The translations under genes were made by a program, and so were the position numbers. From Amoebophrya sp. A120 (Eukaryota; Protista; Dinoflagellata), in the NCBI GenBank assembly GCA_905178155.1, contig CAJINV010000007.1, positions 4,428,258 to 4,492,257 of the forward strand: a stretch of DNA of 64,000 nt, written 5' to 3'. How positions within the stretch are numbered: the stretch's first letter is position 1; each line of letters starts with the position of its first letter. The notes under the pieces are model-generated. The model ran no database searches, was not told the DNA's origin, and was given only the letters and a program-made list of their open reading frames with translations. Below are positions 10,452-64,000 of the stretch, in pieces.

Positions 10452-13400
10452 TCAAAAAAACCGCGGTTGGTGGTGCTGCTGCGGCTGAGAGAAAAACATC
10501 TGCTGTTGCGGCTGCTGCTGGAATTGGTTTTGATGCTGCACAATTGGCACCTGCTGTTGCGGGTGCTGGAATAGCTGCTGTTGCTGCTGTTGTGGCGCTC
10601 CTCCACTTCCCGGCTGTCCTCCGAATAATCCGTTCGGAAAAAGAGATTGCGGTGGCTGCTGCTGCTGCTGCGGCGGAGGCATACCTCCACCGTAAGAAAT
10701 AGAAACCCCGGGGGCTACCTGGTAAGTCGTTTGGCCCGCCGCGCCCTGCGCTGGAAATTGATGTTGCTGGAACACTGGTGGTTGCTGCTGTTGTTGCTGC
10801 ATCACGCTGCTGTTCTGTGGCATGATCGTATTCGCCAGACCAGACAGTGCGGCAGACGCCGACGCAAACCCCTGCTGGGCCAACGTCTGTGGATGGAACC
10901 CTGGGGAGGGCGGGACAGAACCTGAAAACGAATTTCATGTGCTACGTACCAGGGTGATAAAACAAAAAAAAAGGGTCAACAAACACTACTTCACAACAAA
11001 ACATGTTCATGTGTACGATGCATATAGTTATACTACTTCCCTCACCTGCTTGCTGCTGCTCCATCGGGCTGGCCGCAGAAACGTTGCCTCCACCACCACC
11101 GCCCCCACTTCTCACAGACGCCAACAACTGCGATTTTTCCTCGCTTCTCGCGAAACAGTAGTCCGAGATCTGCTGTTTGCACTGCCGGAGGAAGTCCCCT
11201 AGTCTGGTGTAGAAGTTGATCCCATCTGCTAAATCCTTCAACACCGTCAACAGCATATTCGCGCACGCAGTCAAAGCAGTGATGATCTTCGCCCGCTCGG
11301 AGTTTTGAAAGGCGGACTTCCGCGCGTTCACCGTCGTGTTGTACAGATTCAGTAGGTTTTCCGCCTGTTTCCTGTACTCCAGCTTCAGATCCGGTATGGA
11401 AATCGCAGGGAGGTTTTGCATCGAAGTGCCATCCTCGTTGATCATTGTCGTACTATTTGACGCGGACCTCAACTGCGTCAAGTGCTGCTCGATCTTCCCC
11501 TCCACAATCTGCCGGCAGGTTTGGTTCAGCTGCTGATTGGCAGACAGGCCGGAACAATTTGCGGACACAGCAGCAGCATTTCCATTTCCCCCTGTCGTCG
11601 TTGTATTCACTGCGTCTAGTAATTCGCCCTCCACCGTTTTGTCGTTCTTAATCAAGTTCTTCGCTTCGTCAATTTTCTGCCTCAACTGCTGCTCCAACTG
11701 CTCCAGCTTCTGCAAGGCTTGCCGCACCGCGTTGGTGTGCGACTCCAGGACCGACAAATCTCCGTTCCCTCCCTGCGACTCGGCCAATTGCGCCGCAGAC
11801 GGGGTGGTGGAAGCCGGCAAGCCCTGCTCGATTTCCGCACGCGTTTTGCCGATCCACTTCACATTCGCGTTCTTCATCAACGCCTCGCCCCGGGCCTTCA
11901 GCACTTCGTTGGCCTTCCTGGCCTCGGACAGTTTTTTCTCGTACGACATCAAATTCTGCCGGAACTGCTCTTGCAGAACCTCGGATTTTTCTCTTTTCAA
12001 AATCGAGTCCTGTCCCGCCTGCGCGATGCGTTGGCTGAACAGGTTGTCATCCTTCATCTCCTCCTCCAACTTCACGACGCATTCGTTCAAAAGCGATCCG
12101 CAGATCCGATCGTACTCGGTCAACGCTTCCAAGCTAGCCGTCAAACCGCTGACGCCGCCCTTGCTGGCCGCATCCTGGATCTTCGCCCAGGTCTCTTCGG
12201 GCAGAGGTTCGATAGAAGCTTGTGGGTTGTTCGCGGAAGTTCCTTTCGTCGTCACGCCGAGAGTCGACGCGATCAAATCTCTGACGTCTATCGTGTTCTG
12301 ACCGGCAAGAGGACCACCTCCCATTGCCCCTGCACAAGCGCCCGCGGCTTGTTCATCCGAAGGACCACCGGCTGCAGTGCTGGAAGACAGTATCATGTCG
12401 ACCTCCTGCTTCGAATTTTTCCACTCGTCGTCCAACGCAAACAAAACCGACTCCTGCCGCATCTGGTAGTCTTGCAAGGCGGATTGGACAAATTTTGGGA
12501 GCAGCGTTGCCAGCACCGGTTTGTACTTCAACCCATACGCCTCGTCGAAGAACGCGGGGTCGGTAAACCCCGATTTGGAGAAGGAAATAGGCTTGGAAAC
12601 CTCAATTGTCGTGATAATCGGCAACTTCGCAAAATCCGTCACTTCCGGCGGGAAGTAAATGGTCTCGCAGTCGTGCTTCACCTTGTTCAATTCAATCTGG
12701 ATGGCGCTTTTCAAGCTGCCAACGTCGCTGTATTCCGATTTTCCCGCGGTGAACACCGTTTGCTCCGCGTGTTTGAACCGCGCGAGACACTCGCCCCAGC
12801 CGCGCATCGTTTTCTCGCAATTTTCCTTCTCGAACATCGCCTGCTGAAAGACCGCCGCGGCGAGAAAAGTTTTTTCCTGCGCGTCGAAGATCTCCGCGAA
12901 TTGCGGCCCAATCGACCCTATCAAATGCAAATATGTCTGGGTCTGGAAAGTTGGAACTTGTAGTGCTAGCTTTACACTCCTGGGATTGGGAAATTTGTAC
13001 TGCATAACCGACAAAAGCCGCAGCCATTTTTGTCATGCAAGAGCGCAGTTTCTCAGTCTCATGCAGACTACCTATGAGAAACAACTCCGGGAAGTTGTCA
13101 TGCTGGGCTGCATATGGAAGCCTTTTCATCATGCGCATTTTAGCATCACAAGTTTCCAGACCCAGACATATTTGCATTTGATAGACCCGGTGAGCTTCCT
13201 CGCGGCGGTCAGGCACTGGCTGTAGTCATTGGAGACACGCATGGCCAGCTTCGCCAACAGCGACCGGAGTTTCTTCTCCTTGACCGCCTTTTCGTAAACA
13301 CACGTGTTCGCTTGCGCGATCATGACGCAAGACCACATGTGGAGTGCCGATTGCGACAAGTCGTGCGTGGCGATCCCCTGCAAATCGGTCGCGACGAAAT

Positions 13401-13959
13401 CTCGGAGAAACGCGAAAATCCCCGCGGACCGGCAAAAGAGCTGGATCGCGTGTCTGGAGCCCTCCTCCGTCGCGGTGCGGTTTTGGTTCACGGCGGACGA
13501 CCCCTCGAGCGCCGCTAAATTGTAGACGCAACTCGCTTTCTCGAGGAGAAAAGAGGACTGCTGCGTCTTAACCTTCGGGCGGAAGGTGTCGTACCAAACG
13601 AGATCCACTTTGTAGCTGCTGGTGGAGGTCTTCTTCGTGTTGGTGTTCACCAAGTTCGCGAATCTCCCCTCCAAGAGTTGCAGCAACGCGACGTACTCCG
13701 TGATCAGCTGTCGGGAGGTGTCTAAACTCGCGTCCGAGCTCCGGACGTCCCGGCTGATCCGGTCGCGGTGCTTCTGCACGTCTGTGGCGAACTCGAGGAG
13801 GAGGGGGCTGGGGGGCGGGTTCGGGTTGAATCCCGGCCCGGCGTTGTTGAAAGTGGAAACATTGTTCACGATATCCACACCAAAGGCTCTCTGGCAGTAA
13901 GTCGTGATGGCGTCGCGAAGGTTCGCCGGGTCGGTGGGTTTCACGTCGGGTTTTAGCAT
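10452..13959 (-). CDS. ALIX/Bro1-family ESCRT adaptor (Bro1 domain, coiled V-like region, Gln/Pro-rich tail), ~1037 aa; exons 13959-13188, 12917-11046, 10921-10452
   Basis: Bro1 motifs LVWYDTF, FLLEKASCVYNLAAL, AIQLFCRSAGIF, HDLSQ..L.MW...MIAQA, DCETIYF; V-domain end GINFYTRL. Intron 1 is a non-canonical element; intron 2 (10922-11045) is GT-AG. Start codon uncertain. Confidence 0.88.
12919..13183. mobile_element. Introner-like TIR element, family A (TATCAAATGC...), intron in Bro1 gene
   Basis: Perfect 31-bp TIR TATCAAATGCAAATATGTCTGGGTCTGGAAA (12919-12949 / 13153-13183). Perfect TSD GACCC. Removing 270 nt gives KLTG-SIGPQF in frame. Confidence 0.95.
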
Positions 13960-14129
13960 TGTGCGCACTTTTGTTTTGACGTATACTTTCGTGGTGCAGA
14001 TGTCAGCGGTTGCCAGTTGTTGCCTATGCCCAAGACATCATTTTTATTGACGTAGATGGAAGAAAGTAAAGTTTTGACCAACTAGAAAAAGCACGGATCC
14101 GAGCACTTGATGCTGCACGACCTCCAAAT

Positions 14130-16365: not shown

Positions 16366-18758
16366 CTACCGTTGCACAAATGGCAACGCGTTTGGTAACT
16401 TCACACTCCGTACCAGGAACGGATGATTTTCCAACAGGTCCGTCGCCGCGATTCGCTTGTTCGGGTCCAGCGCCACGAGAGAATTCAAAAAAGACAGACA
16501 CCCGTTCTGCGTTTCCTTCTCCTGCCTCACTAACTCGTACAAAGCCACGCTCCAGGAGTTGTTTCGGTCGTATAGTTCTTGCCGACCAGAATTATCTGCC
16601 TCGTTGCTTGTTCTACCTTGTTCACCTTCGCGATAATGTTGCTCCAACACTGCCGCGTTATTTTTACCTCCATTTGGTGCGGTGCGTCCCACAACAGCCC
16701 CTCCTATAGTTGTAGCAAGCGCTGCTGCGCCGGTAACGGTTCGTCCAGTAGCGGAAGTTCCATCTGCTCCTGCTGGAGCCGGGTTGCCTTCTGCTATCTC
16801 CATCCGTCGCCAATACACAGAAACCGGGATCATGGTCTGGTCCTCCTGGTGGCCGTTGTCCGTGTCCGAATTCACTCCAGCCCCCGGGATTGCCTGCCCG
16901 ACTCGCTCGATTTCCGGCCAAACGGACAGAATCTCGCGCCGGAACTTCTGTGCAGAGGGGATGGGCTTTTGGGTCAATTGCAGCTCTACCCGGACTTCAG
17001 CTCCGGTAGTAGCGGTACTAGTTGCAGCAGCCGGAGGTGCTGCCTGCGCAGGTTTTTCTGTTGTCATTGTACTTTGTCGTCCGTTCCTTCCACCATCGCT
17101 CATCCCGGCGGTGGTCCCGTACGAAAGCATGGAATTCAGGATCAGCGGAAGCTGTTCAAATTCCGACGGCGATTGGAAGAGAATGCTGCCGACCACCAGC
17201 TCCGCGAAAATGCACCCGACCGACCAGAGATCGATCCCGAACCCGTAGAAGTAGCTCCGCAGCAAGACTTCGGGCGCGCGGTACCACAAAGACACGACGT
17301 TGGGCGACATCGACCAGACCGGCTCGACATAGTTTGCGTGAGGCTGCAGGTGCTCCACGTTCAGGCCTTCTTGTTCAAACTGCGTTGTAGCAGATGAATC
17401 TTGTGGTCCACCACCACCAAGTATTCTTGCGTCTGTGCTTGTCCTCTCCACCGTCTTGATTTGGTCGCCTCGCTTCTCCTCGTTCATTTTTCCCAGGCCC
17501 TGCTCCGTTCGTCGCTTCTTCGAGGAGGGAGAAGCGGTTGATTTGAGCAGCAACTTTTTGTTGCCGTTGACCTTCCGCAGGAGCTCCTGCTTCCTTGCAA
17601 ATTTCTTCGGCTCCACTACCACTCTTAGCACCGATTCCTCCTTCTCCTCGTCAAAATCTTCGTGCCAGATCGGGTCGCCAACCGTGGATCCGGTCGCAAG
17701 ACCAAAATCCGTGATCTTCAGAAGACCCGTATTCGCGTCGCACAGCACGTTATCCGGCTTCAAATCCCGGTGCACGAGGTTCAGCTCCTCGTGCAAATAC
17801 GCACAGGCGGTGAGAATCTGCTTCATCATGCAGGCAATGTCGGCGTTGGTGAGTCGGGTAAAAGTCGTGTGGTAGTTATTCTTGTTGTGCCACCTATGAT
17901 CATCCGCCCCGCCGATCCCAAACGCTTGCCGGCTTGATGATGTTCCACCTGGTGGCGGTGAACCGGCAACACCAGAAGCAGAAGCTCCTCCAGAAGACCT
18001 CTCCAGCAAATCTTCTTTTCTCTTTTTCTCCCGGTACCTCTCCATCAATTGCACCACTTCCTGCTTCTTCTCCGCGATCAAGGCCGCGTTTTGCCGCGTC
18101 TCCTGGTTCGTCAAGTGCTCGATTTGCTGTTCCAACTCCGCGATGAAAACTGGGTACTTCAACAAGAATACCAGGTCCCGCTGGTGTTGCTCGATGCACT
18201 TCCGCAAGTTCAGGTCCAAAAACGGCATCACCAGGATCAAGTCCTTCGACTTCGCGTCCACGAACGCTGTCACCATGGAGATCAAATTGTCGTGCCTGCA
18301 GATCGACATCGTCTTCAGTTCGCGGATCGACGAGATGTGCAGCCCGGAGATTTGGGAGGACTGGGCCTTGATCTTCTTCAGCGCTACGGTGCTGGAAGTC
18401 AAATTGTCCCGACATTTGATCTATCAAATGCAAAAGTGTCTGGGTCTGGAAACTTGTGACGCAAGGACGGGAATAGTGAGCTCACTGTAATGATGCGCTC
18501 CACAGCATGACAAGTTTTTTTTCATGGTTCTGAGTTGCGTACTCCGCATAAGAAACTGCGTTTTTGCATGACAGGCAGGAGGAGCTCTTTGCGACCACGC
18601 AATACAGAGTTCAGAGTCATGCCAGACTAGCATGAAAAATCTCGCAATCTCCCAGACCCAGACATATTTGCAATCGATATGATCACCTTACCGTAGGTTC
18701 CCTCGCCGACGTGGCGCTCCAGGACCTCGAAGCGGTCGTTCTCGCCGTATTTCAACAT
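16366..18758 (-). CDS. Cyclin-dependent kinase (CDK7/CDK10-like), ~709 aa with long insertions; exons 18758-18684, 18420-16366
   Basis: GEGTYGKV, VALKKIK, GLHISSIRELK (PSTAIRE-equivalent), HRDLKPDNVL, DFGLA, VVSLWYRAPEVLL, IDLWSVGCIFAEL, LDPNKRI. Exon 1 is missed by the ORF track. Confidence 0.92.
18422..18679. mobile_element. Introner-like TIR element, family A, intron in CDK gene
   Basis: TIRs TATCAAATGCAAAAGTGTCTGGGTCTGG / CCAGACCCAGACATATTTGCAATCGATA. Perfect TSD TGATC. Internal homology to the 12919-13183 copy in inverted orientation. Confidence 0.93.
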
Positions 18759-38076: not shown

Positions 38077-41000
38077 TTACAAGAATGAGGTGGTTGCTGA
38101 AGCTGTCGCCACAGGAGCGGCCGTTCCTGCCTCACCACCGGCTTCTTGCGAGGTTGTGGATGTAGCAGTACTACCATCTTCGCTGGTCGTTGTTGAGTCC
38201 GAGGTTGTGGCGGTGAGGTTTGAAGACGACCCAGTAATTTCTTCCAGTCCCATCTCGATCGTTGCGTACGAGGCCAGCTGGGCGATCCTCGTTGCAAAGG
38301 GCCACGAAATGTTGTCCAGCGTGTCGTCGATTGTGTGCCCAAATTTGGCCTCCGCATCCTAATATGCATGACAAACTGTTCTCAACTATCTCGAAGAGAA
38401 AAAAATAGTTTTGATGGCAAGCCTCATTGGTTTCATTTGGGTCTTCTGGGCGATACATCACGAATCTGTATCGCATAAACAGAAAACCAAAACGAGGATC
38501 CGTCGTTTTCTGTTTGCGACCTCCGTCGGAGGTCGCAATATTTCGTGCAATCTTATGTCAGGTGAGGCTTATCCTCTAAGCAGGGCCGAGGCCGTGATGA
38601 TAGAATGAAATAAAGCTGCATGATCGACGTGCAACAAGCATCTTCGTTCTGCCTACATATGCCAGACTTGTTGTTCGAGACAGGGAGGAGATTAATTTGC
38701 GCTGCATACCAGGTTGTCGCGCTCGATGAGAAGAACCGCCGGGAAGTGGTGATTCAGCATGGAGATGTGGTCGGAACCGAAGCCGTGGTAGTTGACGGAC
38801 AGGTCCAGCTTCGAGGGGTCGTCGTGCGACACGATGCGCTTCGAAAGTTCGCCTAGAAGGTTCACCAGGTGCTGCTGGGGTTGCTTGGTGTGGTCCAGGC
38901 TGGGGTCCGGGTACTCGCCCTTCGTTTCGAAAATCAGACCGGTCGGACCACTCGGAGTCTTCTGGTAACCAACCTGGAGAGAATCGTTTTGTATGTTTAA
39001 TAATATCGGAATGTTTATTCTTCATCAACACATGTTATACTGACACGAAGAACAATTCCAAAAACGATCATGCGGAAACGCAATGCTAAACGAATTTGTT
39101 TCTCTTTTGCAGATCTCCCTTGTCGCTGACTCACAATACTACCTGGTCCATAATCAAGGCCTGGTAGACGGATTTTTTCTGCTCCTGCAATTTCTCTGCA
39201 AAAGCCGCACTACCGTACAGCCCCTCCTCCTCAGCGCTGAAGGCCACGAAGTAGATGGGTATGGAACAGGAAAGATAAATCGCAATCGAATCGTATTAAC
39301 CAATGCGCGTAAACTAAATCCATTTTCATTTTTTTTTCATTTCTCGTCCTCGTGTCTGAGGTAGGTTTACTCAACTTACTACGGAGGAAGGGAAAAATAT
39401 CACATTTCGACTGCTAAACTAACGATACTTAGCAAATCATGGGCATTCTTTCTACTCGCAAGATACAAGAGCTTAAACTTCCTAGAAGTTTCTGTCATTG
39501 CGCGGCCAGTGCCCTGTTAATACAAAAGACATGCAGCGACACACTGGGTTTGAATTTCATTGCGTGCGGTTTTTCCCGTGGCGATACTCGGTCGGTTTGG
39601 TGCCGTTTGCGCTTTCTCGAAGTACTTCGTAGCCTTTTCGGCGGCGATCAGCATTGCTGTGTGGTTTTATTTCAAAGTTGACGCGATTCTCATTTCCGGA
39701 ATAGATCACTCAGACAATGATATTGTGACACTAAGGGTCAGGAAGAGACTAATAGAATACTTTACGCTAATTTAATTTTCTGTACATGCCACTCCACTGG
39801 CATTGTCGTCGGCACCGGGGGCGATTTGTCCGAAAGGACGGCTGTCGTAATGGGCCCCGACCGCAATGATCGGCTGATTTTCGTTACCGCTCTTCGCCTT
39901 CAGCTCGGCAACGACGTTGTAGCACTTTACGCCGGAGTATGAGAGTACTTAAATCCACCTCCCCTTGTTGTTCCCTTCATTTGAACGGCTCGGCAGCATA
40001 CTGTTTCACAACATGAGTCACCAACCGCTTCTTGACACATTCACTTGCACGACCCGGCGTGTGCTAGCCTTTGCCTTGTTCATCCGAACCGACTGAAAAG
40101 TAGATGTGCTGCTAGAAATAGCGAGAGTGATGAAGAGTGGACGATTTCGATAGTTCTTTGGCTTTGCTATCTTGCATATACCTTCAACTCAAGAAGACAG
40201 CGGGGTAAAAAGGGGGCGAATTCTTGCACTCTCATACGGAGCAGTCGAACTCCTCCTCGCGCACGTCCAAATTCGGCAATTTTTCCGGGATATCGCACAA
40301 AAAGCATGCTTCTCGTGTAAACATGTATGACTTTGCAGGATCTGCATCACAAGTTAAAGTCTCGCTTCACATGACAAAGAATAAGATCTGCCATACGTGC
40401 TTTCCAAGAGAGAAAGACAGCACGGCTCAAATATGCATTTTTGCATGATACTATTCGAAGTTTACAGTGCAGAAACGCTACGTTTTTTCTATCCATACAG
40501 GTAGGCCTTGATGTATTCCCGGGCCTTCTTGTTTCCGTCGTTCTCGATGTAGCGCGATTCCTGGTTGTTGACGAATTCGGTGAGTAGGCCTTTGTACTCC
40601 GCCTCTGGCAGGGATGGTACGCTGATCAGGCTTGGCGTTACTTGTGACAAATCCTCCGTCGAGACAAACGCCTCCAGCTGCTCGACGATTTTCGAGTGTC
40701 GACGCGTGATTTTTTTGCTCTTCTCGACGGCCGCTTTCTGTTCTTGTTGTGCAGTGGACTGGCTTTTTTCCACCTGCGCCGATGCGTTCTCGTTCATCTT
40801 TTGCAGCTTCTGAGCTTGTCTTTGCTTGGTAATTTTTCCCACCTTGCTGTAGTTCAGCTTTAAAGACGATGAGGAAGCAATGGCCGTCTGCCCGTTGCTC
40901 GACGTCTTGCTGGTAGATGAAGCGGTAGCGGTGCCGACATTGACTTTGGACGCCGCGAGCTTCTTCTTTTGCAGTAACTGCAGGGTAGATGAAGTGGATG

Positions 41001-41719
41001 ACAGGCTTTCGTGTCGCCCCCCAATCTGGTCCTCATGGTGTCTCCGCAAAAATCCGGTTGGTCCTCTCCGGTGGGGATTTCCGCCAGCCAGCTTTCCTAG
41101 TTTCCGGAGTTCTTGACTAGCCGAACCAGCGATATGCAGTGCAAAAACATCTTTCATCTGGCACACGCACGTAAGTACAACTACGAGCTGCAAGAGCAAG
41201 ACGAGACGAGCAGAAATGTGCATGCCAATGTTGATGTAGCTCTCCATCTTCTTCATGTTCATGTAGTTCATGCCCCTGCTCATCCTGTGGCAGGAAGTTG
41301 TGGTCTTTTGAACAATCCCTCGAAACCGTATGTGCGTGGGTATGATGACGACAAGCAGTACATTCTTGCAATGCATAAGCCGCGCCACTCGAGGACGACG
41401 GGGACGAGGCGCCGGCGATTCCACCTGTCGCCCCTCCTGCTGCAGCAGCTCCGCCTGCTTCTCGTCGTACAAGCTCAGCAAACGCTCCTGTTGCACCACT
41501 CGCTGCTGTTGCAGCCCAGAAAGCGACGAGCGAGCGACAAGTGGATGTAGCACTGGAGGCGCACTTCCGCTGAAGTTTTCTAGTTTGATTCGCTTTAACA
41601 TTCCGCCCCTCTGCATTGTTTCCGCTGCGATTCATAGGCGACATCGTTCTGTGATATAGTCCAGCCGTTGTAGCACGAGAAGTCGTTCGCACTATAGAAC
41701 GGGACGCGGCGGGCGCCAT
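38077..41719 (-). CDS. M28-family zinc aminopeptidase, ~631 aa, 8 exons (41719-41380, 41129-40498, 40285-40237, 39932-39786, 39656-39588, 39255-39143, 38973-38710, 38358-38077)
   Basis: Reconstructed motifs NVVAELK, VGAHYDS, APGADDNASGVA, RPIYFVAFSAEEEGLYGS, LIMDQVGY, GSDHISM..FPAVLLIE, GHTIDDT. Exon lengths sum to 1896 nt with consistent phases. The catalytic exons are absent from the ORF track. Confidence 0.9.
38363..38708. mobile_element. TAT...ATA element (TATGCA family) forming a now-canonical GT-AG intron (38359-38709) of the M28 gene
   Basis: Imperfect TIR TATGCATGACAAACTGTTCTC vs TATGCAGCGCAAATTAATCTC. Flanking 5-mers on the mRNA strand CCTGG / TTAGG. Confidence 0.75.
39260..39586. 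mobile_element. Degenerate TAT...ATA element, intron in M28 gene
   Basis: Imperfect TIR TATGGAACAGGAAAGATAAATCGCAAT vs TATCGCCACGGGAAAAACCGCACGCAAT. 5-mers CCGAG/CCCAT. Removing 332 nt restores NRPIYFVAFSAEE. Confidence 0.75.
39938..40236. mobile_element. TAT...ATA element, family B (TATGAGAGT), intron in M28 gene
   Basis: TIR TATGAGAGT / ACTCTCATA. Perfect TSD CGGAG. Removing 304 nt restores EEEFDCS-GVKCYNVV. Confidence 0.88.
40291..40497. mobile_element. Degenerate TAT...ATA element, intron in M28 gene
   Basis: TAT and ATA ends with a weak TIR. 5-mers ACCTG/TCCCG (mRNA strand). Removing 212 nt restores YIKAYL-EKLPNLDV. Confidence 0.65.
41133..41377. mobile_element. TAT...ATA element (TATGCA family), first intron of M28 gene
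   Basis: TIR TATGCAGTGCAAAAA vs TATGCATTGCAAGAA. 5-mers CGGCT/TCGCT. Removing 250 nt joins ORF 41117-41719 to ORF 40489-41616 in frame (SGAA-GSASQELR). Confidence 0.8.
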
Positions 41720-44166
41720 TTTGACAGTCTTCGTCTTACTTCTCTTGCTGTAGTGTCATCGAAGAAAATACATAGAATGCCATCGACGCCCTCTTCTAGC
41801 ACAAGCACGTTTACGCAACTACCAAATCACAAAGATCCACACGAACGGAAAACCAGAAGGGCTATTTTATCCGGTTTCAAGGTCAGGTGACTTTCCCATC
41901 TGAAATTAATGTCACTTCGGATCTACTTCTAGGTCTAGCAGTGCCACCACTCCTGCTCGTCCAACCTCAATAAACTCAGTGACATCACTCTATCTCCAAA
42001 ACAGGGACGACATAGAAAACACTTCCTCTCGGTTCAACAACCCTTTTCTTCTTCATCATTATCTTGATAAAGTTCTTTGACAGGTGTAGTAAATTGCAAT
42101 TGGTGTGAGCAGAGCTAGTAGATGCTGAACTAGCATACGCACCCGTTTTCCGAACCGACAACACCAGCTCCTGCGATGATGAATTTACGTAAACTTACAA
42201 CGTCTTCACGCAAAAACTCGCGAGACTGCAACTCAATTTCACAACAGAGGAGTGAGTGTTGTGAGAAGGAGATTCCATGGCGATTCCCGAAAGCATTGAC
42301 GACGATTCTCGAAAGCAATTGCAATATGAAGCACCCTGATTTAAGTAGTAATCGACTTAGATAACTGGGCACCATGGTGGGCAGGGAGCGCGCCCAATCG
42401 TTTGCCGCAAAATTTTCCTGAAAGAAACCCCATTCCTGATTATTCTGCTTTCCACCGAAGATCGAACTCTTAGAGGCGCAAACGCAAGCGCGATCCTGTC
42501 CTTAAAAACCACTTGACGCTCTTTCAATGCTCAAGATATCCCAAATCATGCAGAGGCGAAAGAAACAGATGTGATAGTGATAGATCCCGTGCGTAATAGC
42601 GATAGACGGTGTAAACTTTGGTATTCTTCGAATCGATACGGATCGTACTTTGCAACTTCTACGAAATCTGTACAGCAGCAGCCATTGAAAAAAAACCTGC
42701 TTCTGTCCCGCAATAGCATAACTCGAGTCATCTTTCATCTATCTATAGGCTTTATAATTTTGATTAATCTTTAAATTTGAGCAACTTAGGTCCTTGTCAC
42801 CGCCAACATGTTTTTGAATCCATAAAAAAAGCTTCTGCGAGACAATTGTTCTCAGCAATCGGTTAAGTAAGTAACAATGACATATTTATAGATATACCGT
42901 TTTGAAATACCGACGTTAAGAGCGAGGGAGACGAGAGGTTGTCGACAGCTTAAAAAAAAATCAGTACTCGTGCCTGTCTTAATTTCTTTGAAAAATTCGA
43001 ACTACAAATATGCATAAAAGTCCCTTCACTCGTTTTTTGATCTTTGCAGGAGGCAATGACATGCATCTATAAGTTTTTCCGCAGCGACAGCCCCCGGCTG
43101 CTTCTGCATACGCAAGCTTTCATAAGTGTTGTACCTTGTAATGCTATGTATACTATATCGAACGTGATTGCATTGCTTGCACCCTATGAATATGGGTGAA
43201 AAGCCTTCTTAGCGCTCATGGATAAAAGTAGTACCCTTTACATTTTATGAAAAAGATGAAAGTTCTGAGAAACTTACTACAGCGTGTGACACCGCAACTC
43301 AATTGTACGTACGGTTTGTACGTCGGCCGCTCAGATAGTAATCACTTCCTCTTGTTCGTGTTCGTGCAAGGCAAACTCGTGGCTATGCAAAAAACAAAAT
43401 TAAACAGCATGTACGCGTCCTCGCTTTTCATTTTCTCCATCGACATCGATGAGCCCATGCTTCAGCTCAACGAATCATGCGGTAGAAGAAAATACCATCC
43501 ACGTATCCACACCCAGAACCAGATCCAACTCACTCACATACTATAGTATGCATGCCCAAGCGCCGCCGAGGACGTATCAATAAATCGAGATCGACTTCAG
43601 CTAAAAAAAATTGTGGCTGCAAATGCTGTTTCACTCACTGCACACTGTTGAAAAGCCAAAATGTGAGTACGTGGGTCGATAATAATGACTTTGAAACACA
43701 ATGCAGACGAACATCTACCAATGCGCTTTGCTTTTTCATAACCATCGCCGAGAATTACCCGCCAGCGTCCCGGAAAATTCGAATAGAAATAGTGTCCGCT
43801 TGGCTGGTCGTCGTGGGGCACTTATCAAGCTAGACACGCTCCTCGCGAAGGATGGTAATACACAGCTGCATCACCTGTGGTCGGAATGTGAACAATTTTC
43901 AACATCAACATCAAAAACGCAAATTGACTGACCGCGTGTCTACCCGCACGGGTGCGGCTACTAACTTTAGACCGACGCAAGCGCACGCGGATAAAAATCG
44001 GTAAGAGAATGCGAGAGGCATTGCAGAGCACTTTTCGGCTTCCACCAAACGCACGCGCGCTGAGAAGTAGCACGTGCACCAGGTCGCATACTTATAATTT
44101 TCTCAGGTAGTGCCATCGATCAAAAATTTCCGTGTGCTGGATTCGGTGAGGTAAGGCGTGTCTTCT

Positions 44167-47100
44167 TCATGATAAAAACGTGATGACCGCCGTGCCGTCC
44201 GTGATGGCCAGAATTCAAATATCCCACGCGAAGTTACCGCCGCCATCATATTAAGGCTTTGATTTTATTTCGGAGAAGAGATGCTTTCACGTTCACATTT
44301 CAAGCTTATCATGCTTACTCTGTGTAGTTCTCATGCATGGGTGTGCGCGTACTCGTACATAGACATACCTATCACGAAACAATGCTGGTGATGCCGCCGG
44401 CTTACTTCGTTTCTTTTGTAGGATAGCCCAGTCGTGTGTTGTACAAAATGAACGCGTCGTACATTTCGGACAAGAAGATCGGCTTGACACCGGTTGCGCT
44501 ACAAACGTGCGGCCGGATGCTGAATGGCGCGATGCCTCTTAATCCTTGGTACATACCAAGATGCTTGGCAACAGTTTCGCCGTTTTGTCCTTCTCCTTGC
44601 TTGATGAGTGCTTCTTTGTTTTCGATGAGCCTCTCCAGGTTCGCATTTTCTTCACTTGGAGGTGGTGGTGCAACGACGCCGCCTAGTGGTGTAGGGAAAA
44701 CGAGAATCACAGTCAATAAACTGTCTCGCATGATAGATAGCATTAAGCGGCAGGCGGCCCCCGCCGCAGTGCTCAGTTAATATCAGAAATTTACATAGTC
44801 ATAGCCCAACACGGCCACATCTGTGACGTGGACGCGACGAACGATGCCGTCTCTCGGAGCTCTCCGATCTGCCAACTGCCTGTGCCTATATTTGATGATC
44901 AGACCAGAAATTGAAATTGAAAATACTTGCGCGTACCTTTGACCTGTATTGCGTATCCCAAATTTTGTGCGGCCAGGCTGTCCACAGCCTCTTTGATCGT
45001 CTGGCGCGAAAAAGGTACCAAATCCGGGCGCTTGTTGTCCTGGTAACCGGTATCATCATTTTCTGCTTTCGGGTCCCGCAGCAGCTTGGAGCCTCGGGGC
45101 CTGAGGTCTCCGTCTGCTCGGACAACACGCTTCGCCACTTTACACTCAGCGAACTCGTTGCTTTTGGGATCGTGTGGACAGAAGAACGCAACCAAGACGA
45201 GCGAACCCGAACCGCCCCCGCCCGGAGCGCCGCTACCTTCACCAGACGCCTTCTCCTTAAGTAATTTCGCCTCCTCGTCCGCGACAACGACCTCGGCAAT
45301 TTCTTTAGGGCCGGCAGTTTTTGGCCCTTCTGAAGCAGGATACACTCGCTGGAGCTTCAGGCGTGTGTGACGTTGAGTAACTGTTCCGGGTGGACTTGAA
45401 ATCGAGCCGGACCCCTTTCCTGTTGTCGCATCCTTACTCTCTCTGTCGACAGTGACTTGGTACACAGTTATCTCTTTGTCGACAATCTGCATCTTGTCAC
45501 GGATAGCATCTCCTAGGGCTTTGTGAAGTGTCTTTTGCGGCCCTTGGCCAAGGCCAGCCTTTGCCTCCTCTTCGTTCGCAACAATATACACCCAAGAGGC
45601 GGTTTTGGGCTGCCCTAAATATCCCTGTGCGCGCGGGTCGAGTAACCCTGTATCCAACGTACAGGCAGGGAAAAAACTATGGCTCACTCCGCCTACGCCG
45701 CGTGCCTGCAGATCTGGACAGGAGTACGAAAAGGAGGCACACGGGAGGGCAACTTTCGTCGACTTTGTCTTGCCCTCCTGGGCGAACCAACCGTCAGCAC
45801 CACATTTGTCGCCCGCTCCGCTTGGTAGTGCCGGTTTTTGGGCACCAGACGGCGACACGCTGCCAGCCCGTTTCTGCAGGTCCGAGACCTTGAAGTGTTC
45901 TATGCGGGCAGCGGTGGTTTGGCTAGGAAGCCACCAGGCTTCATAGTCTTGGCCATGACTGCGCGAAGGAACTAGTGGTCGGTCTTTGATCCACTCTGCT
46001 TTGTTGATGTCGGAGTCCCGTGATGGCCCACACTCCCCGTAATCTGTTGTCGTTATCAGCTGCGGGTATTCCACGTCAGACCCCTGGGAATCTGTGCTGC
46101 CTGGCACGAGGCAATCTCCTGCGAAATTTCCGTCCTTGGAGAAAGCGTACGTGGGGCCATAGATGTGATGTGGTGCTGGGTCGCCCGAAAGGCCGAAGAA
46201 GAGAAACGAGTTGTCCTGATTCTGCACCATGCTGCCAGCTGATTGCCCGGCAAGCAAGAGTTTCTTCTCCCGCCAAAGCCGTAGAATTTTGGAAAAATAC
46301 GAAGGAGCGTCTCGCACTTCGGCCATTACGTCAAAGACATTTCCGCCACCGATGTAATACATCGTCTTTGCGTCTCCTTCCTTGGGAAATAAGCGATTGA
46401 TGAGCTCGCCTTGAGGAACAGCATCTTCGTGATCGGTATCGTGTGGAATCTTTTGTACCATGTCCGGCTCGTCCGCGTCAATTTTCCAGCTCAGGTTGAT
46501 AAAATTTTCGCCGTCGCTGTGGGGGGAAGGCACCCTAACCCGTAGCTTGTGCCGGACCAAATCAACGTAGAACACTGAATCGTGCGCGATCTTTTTGTAT
46601 TCGGGTACCTGCCGCAGCGAGTCGGTAAATTGCCGCAACGAATTGGCGACGTGTGCTCGGAAGGACGGCGTCATCAGGCACTCGACAAATTCGTATGGTG
46701 GCTGGAACTTTTTCGCTTCTTGTTCTTGTTCTTTCTCTTCTTCTGCTGCTGCTTGCGTCTTTGTTTCCAGCTCCAGTGTGCTCTCTGTCGTGCCCATCTC
46801 ATCTTCATCTACTTCTCCGCGGCATGCTTCGGGATTCCGCAGCATGCTAAGCTTGGCGTCCGCGTTCATGATGAAAGTGAAAGGCGCTTTTCCGTTGGTG
46901 CCACCGCCCCCGCCTTTGCTAACAAACTCCCGGAACAGGTTCACGAATGCCAGCTGCAGGCCGCCATTGTCGATGAGGGTGGACAAGAAAAACCCGTATC
47001 CATAGGACGCAGATCCAGCTTGGGACTGCTGTTCCCGCGGTTGGCCGGCGCTGGACGACATCGAGGCCTCGAGAGCAAGAATGCAGGTCACATACGCGCG

Positions 47101-53100: not shown

Positions 53101-56100
53101 CTTTTGTTCACCAAGAGAAGGCACGGCAGCACTGCTCGGGTAATTCGCCGTGGAACCATCAAGCGCAAGCATGCACGTCGCATACAACCGCTCGGTCTTC
53201 TGCTTCTCGTTTGGATAGGCGAGCTCAGCTCGGTGGCGCGCAGTTTGACAGCCCGGGTCAAGAAAATGTTCCTGTTTATAAGGATCTGGTTGGACAGCGT
53301 CTGTGGCCTCCCCTGCATTTCCAGCACCAGTCGACCGCTCGAATGTCGGCATCTCAATCGCAGCCCGGATCCTCCGTATGTAAGGTTCAGCCTCACTCTG
53401 CAGTTTCGGAATGCAGATCATAGATAACGCAAAGAGCGATGAAGTGACGCTATCGCGGCGGCAACCACTTTTGCGAAAAGCCCTTTTTTCCGGTTTTTGC
53501 AGACCTGCTGATCTGCATGCGTCACGCAGGCACGAGCCTGCCTGTCTGATGTAGAGGCCCGCTCGCTGTGGCTCACCATTGTGCTGGCTAGTCGGAAGGT
53601 CTAGCTTTCGCCACCGTGGAGGAGCCTGCCGGCAGTGCCTCTCGGCGCGATGAGCAAAAGCAGCTCTCTTCGGGTCGTGGTTTGTGTTCCTGCAGATTTT
53701 TGCGAACTGCCGCTGCCCGAAGTGGGGTCTTATGCTTAAACTACCGCGGCCATGCATGGCACCGCCCCCCAGAATGCCGTGTCTACAGTGTGAGCAGGTC
53801 GAAAGCTCGCAACCCGAGGAGCCCGAAGGAGGGATCGCATAGGCATACTCCCCCGAGGAAGGGTTTGGGGGACGCCCCTTCGTATAGGTCTTATATATAA
53901 TGAAGGGTAGCTTGCGGAGGCGAGATCGTGATCGCCCCAGAAGGGAAGGTGTTGGGAACGAGAACGGCCCTGCCGGGGCAAAAGAAAAGCTCCTTTCGGC
54001 TTGCAGCCAGAGCGAACAAGAATTCGCCCCACTGGCGAAGCAGCTGAAGACGCAACGCGATCACCCGAGCAGCGCCGCTACGTAGCAGAGGCCGCCGGGT
54101 TCCCCTAGCTTTTGGCGACAACGCCCCACACCGAGGCCGCAACCGCTGGCGCGCATCATGCAACAAGAAGGCGGCCAAGCCGCGCTTTTCTCTTCGTTGC
54201 GGAGGTGCGCGCGTATCTTGTGCAAGTTCGGCTTCGGCATCACTGAAAACGATGAACGACAACACAACCAGCGCTCTGGACCTAAGTAAACTGCCTGACT
54301 TTTACTCCGGCCGCCGCGGGCCAGCCTCGTGGCCCCTGGGCCGTCTTTCTTCTGCGTGTTTCGCCCTAAGCGGTTACTTAAGTGACAAAGAAGCCGCGCC
54401 CATACTATCTAAATACAGGGCACTCTGACAAGATTAAAGTTTCCGGGGTAGCGGACGGGCACACCCGTGTCTGTGCCCGTCGCCGTCCGCGACCGGCGAA
54501 GCAGAATCGCGCTGCTCTCACAGTCACATGTGTCATGCGGAGCAAAAAAATCCTTTTCTTTGTTTTTCGGAAAAAGTGTTTTCCGTTGCCATAGACAACA
54601 TTTTTTTTGCTTCCCTCGGTTTCCTTGTCCTCCGGTATGTTTTCCCAGGGCGGCCGCGGAATCTCCTGGTCGGGACACATAAACTGCACATGCTCGAAGA
54701 CCGTACCGCGCCCCCCTGAGTATGTTGTTTCCTCTTCGCCTCTTCCACTTTCACGAGCAAAATTTAAGCAAGTCCTTCTAGTGCTCAGCTCCTCATTGGA
54801 AATTCCGCCGTTGTGCTTCGATTTCGAACTGGGTGGGGCTATCAACGGCTGCATCAGTTTTTGTTTGAACAGCTGCTGATGTTTCTTGGGTAGGACCGGC
54901 GCGCAATAATCCTCCGGGCCAGGGCTAATACACTCCCACTGCACCTTCGCATTCGCCGAGCCACATACTTTGCAGCCTGCTACCCTACATGCCTTTTTTG
55001 CGATTAGAAGCTGCATTTCATCGAAGTTGTCCGCTAGTGCCGATTTTGTCCCCGCGTCCTCAGGGTTTAGGGTGCCAGGCTTTTTCTTCCATTTTCCCAT
55101 GAGATCGTCGTATTTTTGAGCAAACTTGTCAGCATCACAAGCGTCATCGGGGTGCGTCACCTCTTTGAAGTGTTTCTTAACGACATCTGCTCCGTTTGTC
55201 TCATCGTTCCGGTAGGCAGCTTGAAGCTCTGTGACACTACCTCTACCGGTAGACGAGGCAGTAGCCTTATCCACATCTGGGAATTCATCTTTCTGGTTCT
55301 GCGAACCCTGCGTCTGCCCCTGCTCCTTCTCCTGTCCCTTGTTCCGCTTCCGCTCTCGTTCGTGCCAGTCAGATGTAGTTCCACCTGCTCGAAGCGTGTT
55401 TGCGCCATACTCTTGTCCCGCCGCACTAGATGTCGTAGAGGAACCTTCAGGCGCCGTGCTGCCCATCAACAAAGCGTCTTCGCTCAAGGAGCCATCTGCC
55501 AGATAGTACGTTGGTTTCACATTATTCCTGGTTGCAGGGGACCCCACAGTCGTCTCCTGGTCCTTCATTTTATTACCGTCAGTAGCCGTCCACGTCCTCG
55601 TACCGCCACCGGTCGTCATGATCTTGTCGTCTTTTCCAGCCGACGAGGTCGCACTACCAGATGAAACGAGGCGCGATTGCGAAACCTGCGCCACAGAGGA
55701 GGTGGAGGACGACGTCGCCACAGATGAGCTGGTCTCTGAAGTGGTGGTCGACCTGCTCGCGCCACCAGCAGCTCCACTTCTTTCCACCGCTCCTGGTGGC
55801 GCCGGCGTGGCGGACCCTCCAGCACCAGTGTTGATACGCACGGGTCCGCGGTGGAACTGGTACTTTTGCGGGTTTTGATTTTCCAAAAACGCAAAGGATT
55901 CCTCCCATTCCTGGTCCGCGTTGACGATGCCGTCCGCGTCCATCTCTGCTCGCTTGTTTCCCGTCCGGTCCCCGCTACGCCCGCGGACGAGCTGGTTCGA
56001 ATACAAACATGTCTGGGTCTTCTGTGGTGGAAAGAAAAAAATTGATTGTTGAATTTCTTGGTCTTTATCGACGATCGATATTTGTTCTCGACACTGACTC

Positions 56101-56656
56101 TCTTCTGGTGAGTGGACAGGAAGAGGAGAGACACCACAAAAGACACATCGCAAAAAACAACCTTTTCGTCACTCCATTTGTCAGTTGTCAATGCCAGCAG
56201 CCCCAGCAAACTGCAATGAGATGTCGCACTCAGAGTCAGAGGGTGCAAGAGAAGATCAGCATATTACACGTTTGCAGTAGCGGTACTGCAGCCACTACTT
56301 CACATGCGTCGGACATGTAGAGAATTTAAGCACGTGTTTGCCACGTCCAGCCAAAAATTTCTCTTGAAAGACATCGACATCGTCGGTCTATTCGACGTAA
56401 ATTGCATGACAAAACAAAGAAGAAGAACCGCTCCGACGGAGACACTCCTATTTGCATCTGATCCAAACCCAGACGTTATGTTTGTATTCGATAGGCTCGC
56501 TCACGGAGCGGTAGCCGGTCGCGAGATCCGCAACCAGTAGCAAGGAGAGCAATGGTGCTATGATTGATAAGAAGGGCTTCAAAAACCGACTCCGGAACGT
56601 CGACAACCTGCTATGGAAGTCTCCTCAACAGATAATTACAGATTGAGCTGTTACAT
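44167..56656 (-). CDS. Probably secreted ~2,480-aa protein with two tandem, heavily inserted peptidase S51 (PepE/cyanophycinase-like) domains; exons ~56656-56655, 56607-56496, 55991-54596, 53447-51150, 48275-44937, 44682-44427, 44215-44167
   Basis: Each unit carries YYIGGGNVF, LLAGQSAGSM (nucleophile Ser), GLRG...SIRPH (His) and AITDG(M/T)AV, preceded by a Cys-rich module. Exons sum to 7452 nt with consistent phases. Hydrophobic N-terminus FLSIIAPLLSLLLVA. The start (AT|G split by a 47-nt intron) is tentative. Confidence 0.8.
44220..44425. mobile_element. Degenerate TAT...ATA element, last intron of S51 gene
   Basis: IR TATCCCAC-GCGAAGTTACCGCCGCCATCA vs TATCCTAC...CGAAGTAAGCCGGCGGCATCA. Removing 211 nt gives NTRLG-ILAITDGTAVI, homologous to EMIAITDGMAVV in unit 1. 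TSD largely decayed. Confidence 0.7.
48276..51149 (-). other. 2,874-nt GT-AG intron of the S51 gene, filled with a GC-rich degenerate insert
   Basis: G|GTATTT donor and TCCAG|GT acceptor join VEVAG-GVTV in phase 1. Same position and phase as the 254-nt intron 44683-44936 in unit 2. Confidence 0.75.
53451..54593. mobile_element. 1,143-bp TAT...ATA element with GC-rich interior, intron in S51 gene
   Basis: Imperfect TIR TATCGCGGCGGCAACCACTTTTGCGAAAA vs TATGGCAACGGAAAACACTTTTTCCGAAAA. 5-mers GACGC/GACAA. Removing 1148 nt restores KKNVV-TSSLFALS, collinear with unit 2, which has no intron here. Confidence 0.82.
55995..56493. mobile_element. Family A TAT...ATA element (older, 499 bp), intron near the 5' end of S51 gene
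   Basis: IR TCGAATACAAACATGTCTGGGT vs ACCCAGACGTTATGTTTGTATTCGATA, matching the family A TIR (left terminal TA decayed to GT). 5-mers AGCTG/GGCTC. Removing 504 nt gives YRSVSE-LVRGRS in frame. Confidence 0.82.
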
Positions 56657-57090
56657 CCTCTGCTCGACGTGCGGGTTTGCTGCTGAACAAGAAGGAGAAA
56701 TCACGATGCAAGAGAGGAAGTGTAGCGCTTCTCGCAGTACTTCAAGTTGTAATATTAGCATCAAGGGAAGGAAGTAGAACGATTAAAGACATGAAAATGA
56801 ATTTGGCGCTGATCGTTCCGATAGCAGTCGAACAAGGATTATTCTCGCCAACATGCATTGATGCATCTTGATCTTCATGGTGGTATCATCGGACCTTGCT
56901 TTGTGATTGAACCTGTTTGTGGGCATGACAAATAGCAGAACAAAGATGTAACACCGTCTGAGAATTTTCCAGCTGAGGAGGCCATACAATCGCAACAGGG
57001 CCAAGTCTCGCTTTCTCCACGCCGGTAGTTCGCGTTTCTTCATGTTTTTCATACCATTTTCGTATTTATTTTTCGCCGTGTCCATGCTTT

Positions 57091-60048: not shown

Positions 60049-60074
60049 ATGATGATGATGATGATGATGATGAT
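60049..60074. repeat. (ATG)n microsatellite
   Basis: About 8 tandem ATG units. Confidence 0.85.
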
Positions 60075-61950
60075 CAATATCAGATTCGTAGTTTGTCGTG
60101 ATCCATCCTATGTGTGGTAGCTGCTCTCACTCTCAGTTTATTCATATTCAATATCAAATGTACTAGTCGGCCCACCCTGCCCTTCTGCTCAAACTGGTCG
60201 TCTCGCGCTCCTCATTTCTTAGGAAGAACAACAACAAGGTCTGCACTCACCTCCTGCGAGATACGCTATGCAGTTGCAGAAAAGTAGTATGTAAGTCGCA
60301 TCTGTAGAAATTGAAATTCAAAGAACCGCAGCACATGGCATGAGCACGCCTTGCATTAGGTAGGATGTCGGGTAGCATTGATTTCTAGCATGAGAAATTG
60401 ACTTCGCCGCTTTTTACCTTGCAAAAACAAGTTGTGCTTATTCATGCTGTGTGCACCAGTCCCTTTGCAAGTCTGTGCGACATTTTACTTCTTACTTTTC
60501 CAATTCATAAGAGAGAAGAAACGCGTCGTGCGTTCTGTTCGTTCAGCCCATACACGGTTCTTTTTGTCAGTTGCAGTGCTTGTGTTTGCCGTTTGCGTTG
60601 TAATCAAGCTCCCCCTCGAGGTAGTTTTGAAGTTGGATAGTTTTCGTTTCGCGGGTCAATGTGTTGCAATAAAAAAACTTACTGGTCAGGATCGCGCGTC
60701 GGCGTCTGTCGAAGATCTGGTTTTGTTCTATGGAGGTGTCAGGTGGGAAAACTTCGACAGAATCGCGATAGCGAGCCATGTATAATTTTTCGAAAACAAA
60801 ACCTGTCGTAGGAGCAGGAGCTCCGTTGAGCCCACAGGACGGCCACTGAAACTGATTCAAGAGCCGGCGTTCAAAGCAGGCCAGCATGAGAAAAATGTGT
60901 ACTTACCGACCACCTGCTTTCTTGAAATCGATAACGAGCTCGTCGTCATGCATGCTCTACTTTTTTATTTTTGGCTCGTGCTTCTGCTCCTTCCCCTGCG
61001 AATATCAAGATACAAAAACCCTCCAGACAAAACAAAGAAAAAAAGGCAAAATCGTCTTCATTTTATTTGTCAGGCTCTGCAAGCGTTATTCTTGACTTTT
61101 CAAACCGAAACAGGACCACCTCAAGCATGCATTTTTTTATAAAGAAGAAGAAGATGCAAGCGAACCACGCGTAACCAAGCAGTCACGAAGTTTTTCCTCC
61201 TGACACTTCCATAATCTTCATTTCGCGAAATGCAACCACTCAGCCACGCTATTACTACGAACCAAAATCAACTACTCTTTGTGCTGTTTACCAACATACA
61301 CCAGCAGTGATTGTATACTTGCTTGCTTCGCTTTTTGCTGTGATATGTTTTGCGGATTACGATCATGAGAGAAATGCTTTGTCAATCTGATTATTTCTTC
61401 TTCATCTTCTGTGAGCTTTAAGTTGTGTCAAGACTTGCGTTTGTCGGATGTTCTGATAGATACCGTTATCAAACTGCCCTTGTAAAAAAATCGTGTGTGG
61501 TGCTAGTCGTGCTAAAGGTTCTAGTACTAGTGTCGTGGAGGTTGTGCCGCGATTGGTGTAGCTGTAGTACAAGCGATTTCCTTTTTGTTTTTACATCAAT
61601 GCACAGGTTTCATTTATTTTGTCGCTACCACGTCGTGGCTTCAGTACCATTTTTGCGCAACTTGGGATACAAGCTGCTCATCTTCGTGGGCATTTCATTC
61701 TGGGTACGGAAATCTTGGATTTTTCTCAAACAATGTGTTGAATGGTCTCCGGGTAGCGGTAGTGGGAAATTGTGGACAGTACCAAAATTTTCGTCAACAT
61801 ACGGGGATAACAATAGATCCCGATCCCCGGAGGTCGCCGTCAGCTCATCGTGAGACGCGTTCGCATTCTGCAGCGCCGGGGTGGGTTGGCGTGCGTTGAT
61901 GTTCTCTGCCTTTGGAAACAAAAACCGGATCGAAAGTCGATGCCGATGAA

Positions 61951-63852
61951 CTAGATGAGCGGGTCATTTCCGTCCGTCGAGGTAGCGAAGAACTGGTCGA
62001 TGTCGTCGCCCCAGGGCGGTGCGCCCCCACCTCCCAACTGCCAATCGTCGTTGAGCGAAGTAGTCATCATACTGCCAGGATTTATTTCTCCCCCACCCGC
62101 AACGGCTACCCCTGCCGCGTGCGTCCTCGCTCGTGTGCCCTCCGTCATACTCGTGGGCGTCAGGTTCAAGTTTAGCGAGCTCGTTGTCCCGCTGGGCGGG
62201 GGTGGGAGCGGCGGAACGAAGCTACTCGTCAGATCTTCCACGACAAGTGGGGGTGTGCTGTCGTGCTCTTCGAGTACCGCATCTCCCTGCTGCAACATCG
62301 ACCGGGACCTAGAGGTTGGAGTTAAGGACGCCGCGTTTCCTCGTAGTGTTTCGACTGACGGCGGCTGTACTCCACTAGCCGACGATGGTGCCAGTGAATC
62401 GTTTACCGACGAAGTACCACCGCCCGGCTGTATCCCAGCATTTCTTGCGGCGGACAGAACCGGTGGGCCACCGGAGCTGGAAGTTCCATACGTGACCCTT
62501 GACGGCGACCTGGGCCGCAAGCTCCGCGTGGCGCCCCCGTAGCCTTCCGTGGACGTGGCTGTTGCAAAAAGGCCGCCGTCGTCGAGCGGTAAGTCGCCCC
62601 CACCAAAGTCGTCCTCGTCGTCGGCGAACTTGAACATTTCGCGTCTGGTGCCCGACGATGAAGATGTTCCGACCATCATGCCACTCTTGCTGCCACCACC
62701 CATGCCCATCGCGGACGTGGACGCAAGCTCGACGACCCTCTCCGCAAACGAGTTACTCCCGGAATAACCGCTCTTGGCGGCCTGCTGGCTGGAGTGGTAC
62801 AGGCGGGCCGCGACGTAGATCACCAGGAGTAGCACGATAAACACGGCGATCTGCCGGGTCCTGCTGGCAACCTGTTGCGCCTGTAGGTCTCCGTCCGGTG
62901 GCGATCCGTCTTGGTTTCGTAACAATACGTCGTCTCCGCCGGTCGTTTGTGTTCCACCCCGCCCATAGTTTTCGGCTGCGTTCGGGCCTCCGACTCCGAA
63001 CTTGCCCAGACCGCCGCGAAGCGAGGTTTGCGGCTGGTTGTTGTTCTGGTTCCCCGTGGCGCTGGCCGTCACAATGCTCGTGCTGGTGGTCGCACCGTCT
63101 CCTGTTCCGAAGTTGCTCAGCTTCTGCTGCCAGTAGACCTCCTGGTCGTCCAACCACACATGGAAGTCCTGCGTGCGCTCGCTCGGGACCCGCCGCCACG
63201 TGACGAAGTGGAACTGCCCAAACGGGTTTTCGATCAGGTGCGGTTTATGGAACTGTCAGGATCGAAATCAAGAACAAAATCGAAATACTTTGTGATGCAT
63301 ATAATCGATACCAGTTGGGGCCGCAGTTTCCAAGTGGCGCATGACAAATTTGGGGAGCGCCAAAATCCAGTCTGTCATGCTGTTTGGGCAAAGAAGACGG
63401 CTCCTCTCATGCTACTCTGGCAGCACATTCCATACCCCTAAACAGGCTAGCAATCGGCCTCATTTGCCTGCTCCCCAACACAGGCCTTACGTGCGCGTGC
63501 CCTACATTTTATGCATTACAAATTTTTTGAATTTGATTTTGTCGATTTCGATCCTGACACTCTCATACGGCTTCGGGTGCGCGTACTTCGGCTTCCCGAC
63601 CGAGACGACGGTGTACTCCGTCTGCACGGCGTTCGTGCGAACAACTTTCGACAGCGGAAACGCGATAGAGGTGGACGTCGCCGTTCCGCCCGCGGTTGCG
63701 GGGAGCAGGGAAGAGGTCGCGGGCGTCGCGGTGAGGAGCTTCAGTTGAAAGGCGAACAGGCCGCACTCGTCCGGAAAGTTGGGCTCTTTATCCTGTTCAA
63801 AAGTTGCATCGCGCTCTTCGTAATAGTTGTAATTGCAGCCACTCATTTCCAT
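61951..63852 (-). CDS. Hypothetical single-pass membrane protein, ~524 aa; exons 63852-63568, 63240-61951
   Basis: Two ORFs join in frame (YAHPKP-HLIENPF) on removal of a family B element. TM segment IAVFIVLLLVIYVAARLY. May have further upstream exons. Confidence 0.7.
63246..63567. mobile_element. TAT...ATA element, family B (TATGAGAGTG), intron
   Basis: ~55-bp imperfect TIR TATG(GAAC/AGAG)TGTCAGGATCGAAATC...ACAAAATC...TTTGT(G/A)ATGCATA. TSD CGGTT/CGGCT. Confidence 0.88.
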
Positions 63853-64000
63853 TTTTTACCCTGTTCCTTCTGTGACTGTGGCATCAAATTTCTGCTCATC
63901 TAAAAGTAAAATAACGTGGCTATATGTTGACGAAGATCATTATGCAGCTGCCTGCGCAGCCAAATGCTCAAGAATCTCACCGACCTAAATCGATCCCAAC

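Follow-up and report, generated by a model that had tools for sequence, protein, structure and literature searches.

What marks the ends of an intron if the transposon from which it derives carries no splice-site sequence? This question is raised by a stretch of 64,000 nucleotides (nt) of Amoebophrya sp. A120 (contig CAJINV010000007.1, positions 4,428,258 to 4,492,257 of the forward strand; hereafter the window), in which genes are interrupted by transposon-like elements with terminal inverted repeats (TIRs) and a target site duplication (TSD) of 5 nt. An earlier note on this DNA had listed 11 such elements and had proposed that the splice junction lies after a G shared by both TSD copies. Our analysis partly confirmed the observation behind that proposal and partly supports its interpretation. 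The elements are removed from transcript-like contigs with non-GT-AG ends, and they are probably cut in one fixed register, which is likely set by the paired terminal repeats together with the triplets UAU and AUA and likely executed by a relaxed U2-type spliceosome that works without U1.

The window is eukaryotic, with all genes examined on the minus strand. Scans for inverted repeats delivered inserts of 200-500 nt with TAT at the start and ATA at the end, and 16 TIR elements were defined (TAT start in 16/16, ATA end in 15/16), the TSD being perfect in 4 and decayed in 12. All 11 elements of the earlier list, together with their quoted TSD pairs, were found on the minus strand (12919-13183 to 63246-63567), and GT-AG ends are indeed possible in just one of them. 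Evidence for removal comes from assembled contigs. The sets X1-X4 originate from one sample and are labelled RNA by guess, and the set X5 runs through introns; X1-X4 were compared with positions 24501-44500, and X1, X5, X8 and X9 with positions 44001-64000, the elements of the Bro1 and CDK genes lying outside both intervals. One joint present in X3 only (33021/41498, a 21-nt side of low complexity) and five X5 joints with sides of 21-24 nt in repeats were dropped before counting. The 16 joints kept comprise four plain GT-AG introns (38974-39142, 39657-39785, 44683-44936 and 48276-51149) and 12 joints over TAT..ATA elements, of which ten cannot be GT-AG; nine of the 12 are present in all four runs and three were examined in X1 only. 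Contigs join across 7 of the 11 elements listed before, and six of these joints can be written with a G on both sides, the seventh being the exception that the earlier note had itself named. The raw RNA runs X8 and X9 gave 38 and 14 aligned reads, all at one repeat near 50770, with zero junction reads.

That the joints represent DNA alleles without the element, or jumps of reverse transcriptase across a hairpin, is in our view extremely improbable. Stable hairpins and direct repeats are known to promote template switching; moreover, the RNA label of X1-X4 is a guess, and unjoined contigs of low depth exist at 36900-37443 and 43350-43771. However, the same contig sets also skip the four plain GT-AG introns, and one transcript-like contig terminates at 60550 in a run resembling poly(A), whereas X5, within the interval compared, crosses the elements unbroken at 44001-50128 and 50778-63352. 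Three joints have zero shared bases, which is expected neither from template switching nor from an empty site. Joined forms dominate (depth 118.9 vs 6.5 for intron 36926-37464) and restore frames: the M28 frame, once joined, stays open over 631 aa, and the joined S51 frame is open across three TIR joints to a stop at 43333 and matches an intron-free earlier repeat of the same protein. The two elements in 3' untranslated regions (UTRs), 36926-37464 and 60725-61214, are spliced though no reading frame depends on their removal.

Where the cut lies can be expressed as an offset, the number of upstream TSD bases retained in the exon. The only value that all 12 joints allow is an offset of 4 at both ends (P = 3.5e-5 under a random-offset null), and the three joints that cannot slide all lie at offset 4. 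The intron accordingly reads N-TAT...ATA-NNNN: its first base is the one preceding the left repeat, and it extends 4 nt beyond the right repeat. The removed length equals the element plus 5 nt, in unrelated families as well as with TSDs that share anything from 0 to 5 bases. One TSD copy, no more and no less, thus remains, and the gene is made whole again irrespective of the sequence at the target. The ten non-GT-AG joints (X1-X4) carry TAT at +2..+4 and ATA at -7..-5, including those in TSDs with 0-1 shared bases. GT..AG arises in register, with no shift needed, in 2 of the 12 joined elements; the U2-type termini GT/GC..AG are found in 2 of all 16, so that the elements as a group lack this feature. 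Position +1 among the 12 joints is G in seven, T in four and C in one, and 7/12 introns begin GTAT. The excision guided by structure that the earlier note had inferred is supported in a sharper form. For the TIR elements 53451-54593 and 55995-56493 no RNA joint was seen, contig cover being absent or very low there; for the former the register predicts an mRNA identical to that of the earlier junction. The latter has AAC in place of ATA at its right end and two outer pairs broken, and offers a natural test of the register. At the Bro1 junction (element 12919-13183) the A120 protein P0001 and two orthologues read through, with an ambiguous cut position within the perfect TSD.

Table 1. TIR introns and elements of the window, all on the minus strand. 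Ends are given in the fixed register; offsets are those compatible with the joint.
Intron or element	Location	Element	TSD	Ends	RNA joint	Contigs	Offsets	In earlier list
12915..13184	Bro1/ALIX gene	12919-13183	GGGTC, perfect	CT..GT, predicted				yes
18418..18680	CDK-like kinase gene	18422-18679	GATCA, perfect	AT..TC, predicted				yes
36926..37464	M28, 3' UTR	36930-37463		GT..TC	36922/37462	4/4 runs	slides 7	no
38359..38709	M28 peptidase	38363-38708		GT..AG, canonical	38357/38709	4/4 runs	3-5	yes
39256..39587	M28	39260-39586	CCGAG/CCCAT	GT..CA	39255/39588	4/4 runs	3-4, shared G absent	yes, as exception
39934..40237	M28	39938-40236	CTCCG, perfect	GT..CC	39932/40237	4/4 runs	0-5	yes
40287..40498	M28	40291-40497	ACCTG/TCCCG	GT..CC	40285/40498	4/4 runs	4-5	yes
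41129..41378	M28	41133-41377	CGGCT/TCGCT	TT..GC	41127/41378	4/4 runs	2-5	yes
43380..43741	S51, coding (by open reading frame and repeat homology)		ATGGT/GCCAC, fully decayed	TT..CA	43379/43742	4/4 runs	4 only, slide-free	no
43819..44175	S51, coding		GTTTT/AGTGC	TT..TG	43818/44176	4/4 runs	4 only, slide-free	no
44216..44426	S51	44220-44425	TGGGC/TTTGA	CT..TG	44215/44427	4/4 runs	3-4	yes
53447..54594	S51, 1.1-kb TIR element	53451-54593	TTGTC/GCGTC	CT..GT, predicted				yes
55991..56494	S51, TIR element	55995-56493	GAGCC/CAGCT	CT..GC, predicted				yes
56608..56987			GATTG/GCAGG	GT..AG, canonical	56605/56986	single X1 contig, depth 2.4, short side 26 nt	4-6	no
60725..61214	last gene, 3' UTR		AAGAT/GAACA	TT..AC	60724/61215	X1; X5 passes unjoined	4 only, slide-free	no
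63242..63568	last gene	63246-63567	AGCCG/AACCG	GT..CC	63240/63568	X1	2-5	yes

The shared G fared less well. Ten of the 11 listed TSD pairs do share a G as had been counted, but not beyond chance, since 7.1-7.5 of 11 are expected from shared bases (P(>=10) = 0.05-0.08); for all 16 window TSDs the count is 12, where 8.9-9.4 would be expected (P 0.07-0.11). The proposed preferential retention of G in decayed TSDs was likewise not borne out, the 12 decayed TSDs of the window retaining A in 4/11, C in 9/14, G in 10/20 and T in 4/15 cases. Five spliced elements were missing from the earlier list, and three of them (43380-43741, 43819-44175 and 60725-61214, two being coding) have slide-free joints with no shared G. 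Altogether 8/12 joints can be written G|..G| and 4/12, three of them slide-free, cannot; junctions unrelated to G, and a retention of G that does not exceed that of other bases, were what the earlier note itself had named as speaking against its rule, and both are seen here, G being retained no more frequently than C. A joint written G|..G| also slides to |G..|G, so that the mRNA by itself does not tell whether the cut follows the G, and TSDs ending in G give introns starting with GTAT in the fixed register, which explains part of the pattern. At 44216-44426 and 40287-40498 the joint sits at the shared G and not at other shared bases, but both cases are also at offset 4.

A wider sample was obtained by a pattern scan with the repeat of the Bro1 and CDK elements, one family among those of the window, in one assembly. 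It delivered 140 loci (about 340 estimated) with 137 complete elements, which are DNA only and whose strain identity with the window is not established. Orientation was assigned by codon score for 73 elements, the other 64 being excluded from strand-specific counts, and loci with several elements were concordant in 14/14 cases. A perfect 5-bp TSD is present in 112/137 elements. Among the 73 oriented copies, 11 TSDs in reading frames share no G on the sense strand (10/58 with a stricter cut), as chance predicts from 16.1% of flanking 5-mers. No selection for G at +1 (24/73, P = 0.52) or for a 3' AG (7/73) was found in these copies. G stands at intron position -1 in 29/73 (P = 0.07), which, next to the writable joints and the G-sharing window TSDs, may reflect a weak preference for G. 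A shared G as a required mark of ligation is ruled out by the four unwritable joints and by the chance rate of G-less family TSDs, and we regard it as very unlikely that G marks the ligation point at all; also, five of the nine commonest non-canonical motifs of A120 are not G-ending in Table S4 of Farhat 2021 (PMC7789003; for this and the other papers cited, our statements refer to the passages covered). The pattern around G arises secondarily from three sources: chance, the slide that shared bases permit, and TSDs that end in G.

The same family copies indicate what is conserved instead. TAT is found at the start of 72 and ATA at the end of 71 of the 73 oriented copies, whereas positions 4, 5 and 7 of the repeat pair in only 36, 42 and 28. 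The copies lie in both orientations relative to the gene (40:33), so that no internal signal of one direction is needed, and the element plus 5 nt falls in all three phases (58/33/46). Constant TAT/ATA ends, variable inner pairs, both orientations and all phases together imply that the signal is symmetric and terminal. The elements show TIRs, a constant TSD length and many copies, as do MITEs (miniature transposable elements with inverted repeats), and no cognate transposase is reported for A120 (PMC7789003). Two types of ends, TATCAA and TATG(C/G)A, are freely combined across the family (L001-L140), and some loci (L008, L062) hold 4-5 copies in a stretch of 2-3 kb, frequently with about 50 nt between them. 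A Pfam search with 15 exon pieces from 9 loci with G-less copies identified the host gene for only two (L033, L108).

On these grounds we suggest that the RNA of a MITE-like introner would be cut at two points, 1 nt upstream of the left TAT and 4 nt downstream of the right ATA, the terminal stem and the UAU/AUA triplets joining the ends and serving as a ruler. The TIR might provide U(+2) and A(+3), as in the ordinary GTA donors of the window, and G(+1) and the 3' AG would be dispensable. The stem that the earlier note had seen as a likely guide gains support, as 11 of the 12 joined elements are predicted, without a shuffle control, to fold with a probability of at least 0.87 for the third terminal pair. 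The executor would most likely be a relaxed, U1-less U2-type spliceosome. A structure-specific endonuclease and a ligase outside the spliceosome could act in the same register and release full-length circles or linear introns, as proposed for the nonconventional introns of euglenids. Such a pathway, which we consider possible but rather unlikely, would agree with the lack of G(+1) and AG, with the tolerance of both orientations and with the failure to find U1 in A120 (PMC7789003); indeed, euglenid introns hold a stem at +4..+6/-8..-6 (PMC4770533) and are released as non-lariat circles (PMC11282704). Against it speak the U(+2)A(+3) shared with the canonical donors of the window, all four plain GT-AG introns beginning with GTA, and the existence of GT..AG introns that conform to the register (2/12). 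Moreover, A120 has a near-complete spliceosome, with 83/89 spliceosomal proteins plus U2, U4, U5 and U6 (PMC7789003), and the non-canonical MITE-derived introns of Fritillaria are reported to be spliceosomal (PMC11282704). As for the enzyme behind the cut, our judgement leans slightly towards the spliceosome, gives the endonuclease and ligase a clearly smaller chance and leaves little for any other machinery. A broader idea, which we hold tentatively and with somewhat more doubt than belief, is that a pathway reading geometry and ignoring both terminal dinucleotides, with cuts 1 nt and 4 nt outside a stem closed by UAU/AUA, removes tens of thousands of Amoebophrya introns, being either a spliceosome that branches at an adenosine of the terminal AUA itself or a second, non-spliceosomal system that evolved independently of that of euglenids. 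If this is true, either pathway would open any 5-nt site to transposon insertion, in both orientations, with the gene unharmed.

Several points weigh against a fixed register set by paired ends. The sample is small, since of 12 joints three fix the register alone and a further four limit it, on one side, to 2-3 positions. The contigs come from one sample, are RNA by guess and reveal the major junction only; three joints depend on one run, one of these at a depth of 2.4. Several TIR ends (for example 43384-43740) were set after the joint was known, and the legend of Fig. 3 in Farhat 2021 (PMC7789003) describes splice sites as variable relative to the hairpin. Finally, the element 40291-40497 is spliced in register, yet folding does not predict a stem at its ends (P <= 0.01), which suggests that reading of the UAU/AUA sequence may matter more than a long stem. 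Published support for the fixed register comes from Table S4 of the same paper, in which the nine commonest non-canonical motifs of A120, at 2-3% each, are all NT-NN, as the register predicts; placement of sliding joints by the aligner could bias this table, which is thus support and not proof. The nine motifs of strain A25 in that table are all TT-NN, and the A25 repeats begin with TTA, so that T at +2 followed by A at +3 may be common to A120 and A25.

A single register predicts every junction from the DNA alone and should improve gene models; such introns account for more than 60% of the introns of A120 and A25, and their splice rule was left open, the borders being called variable (PMC7789003). 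It also yields exact coordinates at which lariats or circles can be mapped and minigenes mutated, by which the splicing machinery becomes testable, and it explains how a transposon carrying no splice-site sequence can freely invade genes. The rule of a shared G should be dropped.

The host genes are supported by Pfam matches to BRO1, protein kinase, Peptidase_M28 and Peptidase_S51, and the last gene of the window had no match in the Pfam scan. A Bro1 exon matches a protein named Amoebophrya sp. A120 at 100% identity and an A25 protein at 57%. The S51-like gene (43333-56000) is internally repeated, with two PF03575 matches and direct repeats of 72-83% spaced 6.1-7.3 kb apart. Its last, partial repeat contains three TIR introns that are absent from the matching earlier repeat, and these were therefore likely gained after the duplication. 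The GT-AG intron 48276-51149 of this gene (2,874 nt) contains a repeat of very high copy number (summed X5 depth about 6,300 at 50004-50670). Elsewhere, two gene copies at 1-300 and 4673-4972 share 77% identity at a spacing of 4,672 nt. In a minus-strand coding stretch of about 14 kb (21700-35800) the scans brought up no convincing TIR element, and the part compared with contigs had little RNA cover. An X1 contig of depth 25 covers 59194-59961, between the S51 gene and the last gene.

The elements of the window are the introners that have been described from Amoebophrya sp. A120 (Farhat 2021, PMC7789003). They show TIRs starting with TAT, a direct repeat at the border, membership in a repeated family and non-canonical removal, in an A120 host. 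The introners described for A120 and A25 share inverted repeats that start with TAT, direct repeats of 3-5 nt over the borders, a length of about 240 nt and RNA-supported non-canonical ends, for which joining by a hairpin was proposed. The elements, their non-canonical splicing, the hairpin model and the loss of U1 are thus already published, and only the register is added here: the text of that paper gives no clear splice signature, with borders variable or unknown, whereas the +1/-4 register fits 12/12 joints. The legend of S23, which puts the inverted repeats at a distance of 1-5 nt from the splice sites, may already capture part of this register. In the literature searched, figures and most subscription journals being outside its scope, neither a G rule nor a fixed register was found for Amoebophrya, and the passages covered of PMC12130899, PMC11282704, PMC9860276, PMC12005148 and PMC11453091 hold no junction rule for its introns.

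The nonconventional introns of euglenids share non-canonical ends, a stem fixed from both junctions and direct repeats at the borders, and a MITE origin was proposed for them, as here, with the mechanism left open (PMC4770533, PMC11282704). They differ in belonging to an unrelated lineage, in a stem at another distance, mostly of CAG/CTG, and in pyrimidine|purine junctions (PMC4770533). The Amoebophrya elements likewise keep a fixed distance to the stem (register in 12/12, stem predicted in 11/12), in a different register with TAT/ATA at +2..+4/-7..-5, and show neither CAG/CTG nor the pyrimidine|purine junction nor any other base rule there. The non-canonical U2 introns of Fritillaria borealis are also MITE-derived, with TIR and TSD, and end in dinucleotides other than GT-AG, in a genome that has a spliceosome; however, their ends are mostly AG-AC or AG-AT and their spliceosomal removal is reported (PMC11282704), whereas here only +2..+4 and -7..-5 are fixed. 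The introners of Micromonas, Aureococcus and Symbiodinium are, similarly, inserts resembling DNA transposons that are precisely removed with one TSD copy left, but they carry or co-opt GY and AG from the element or the TSD (PMC9860276). The Amoebophrya elements need neither GY nor AG, and thus any 5-nt target is tolerated.

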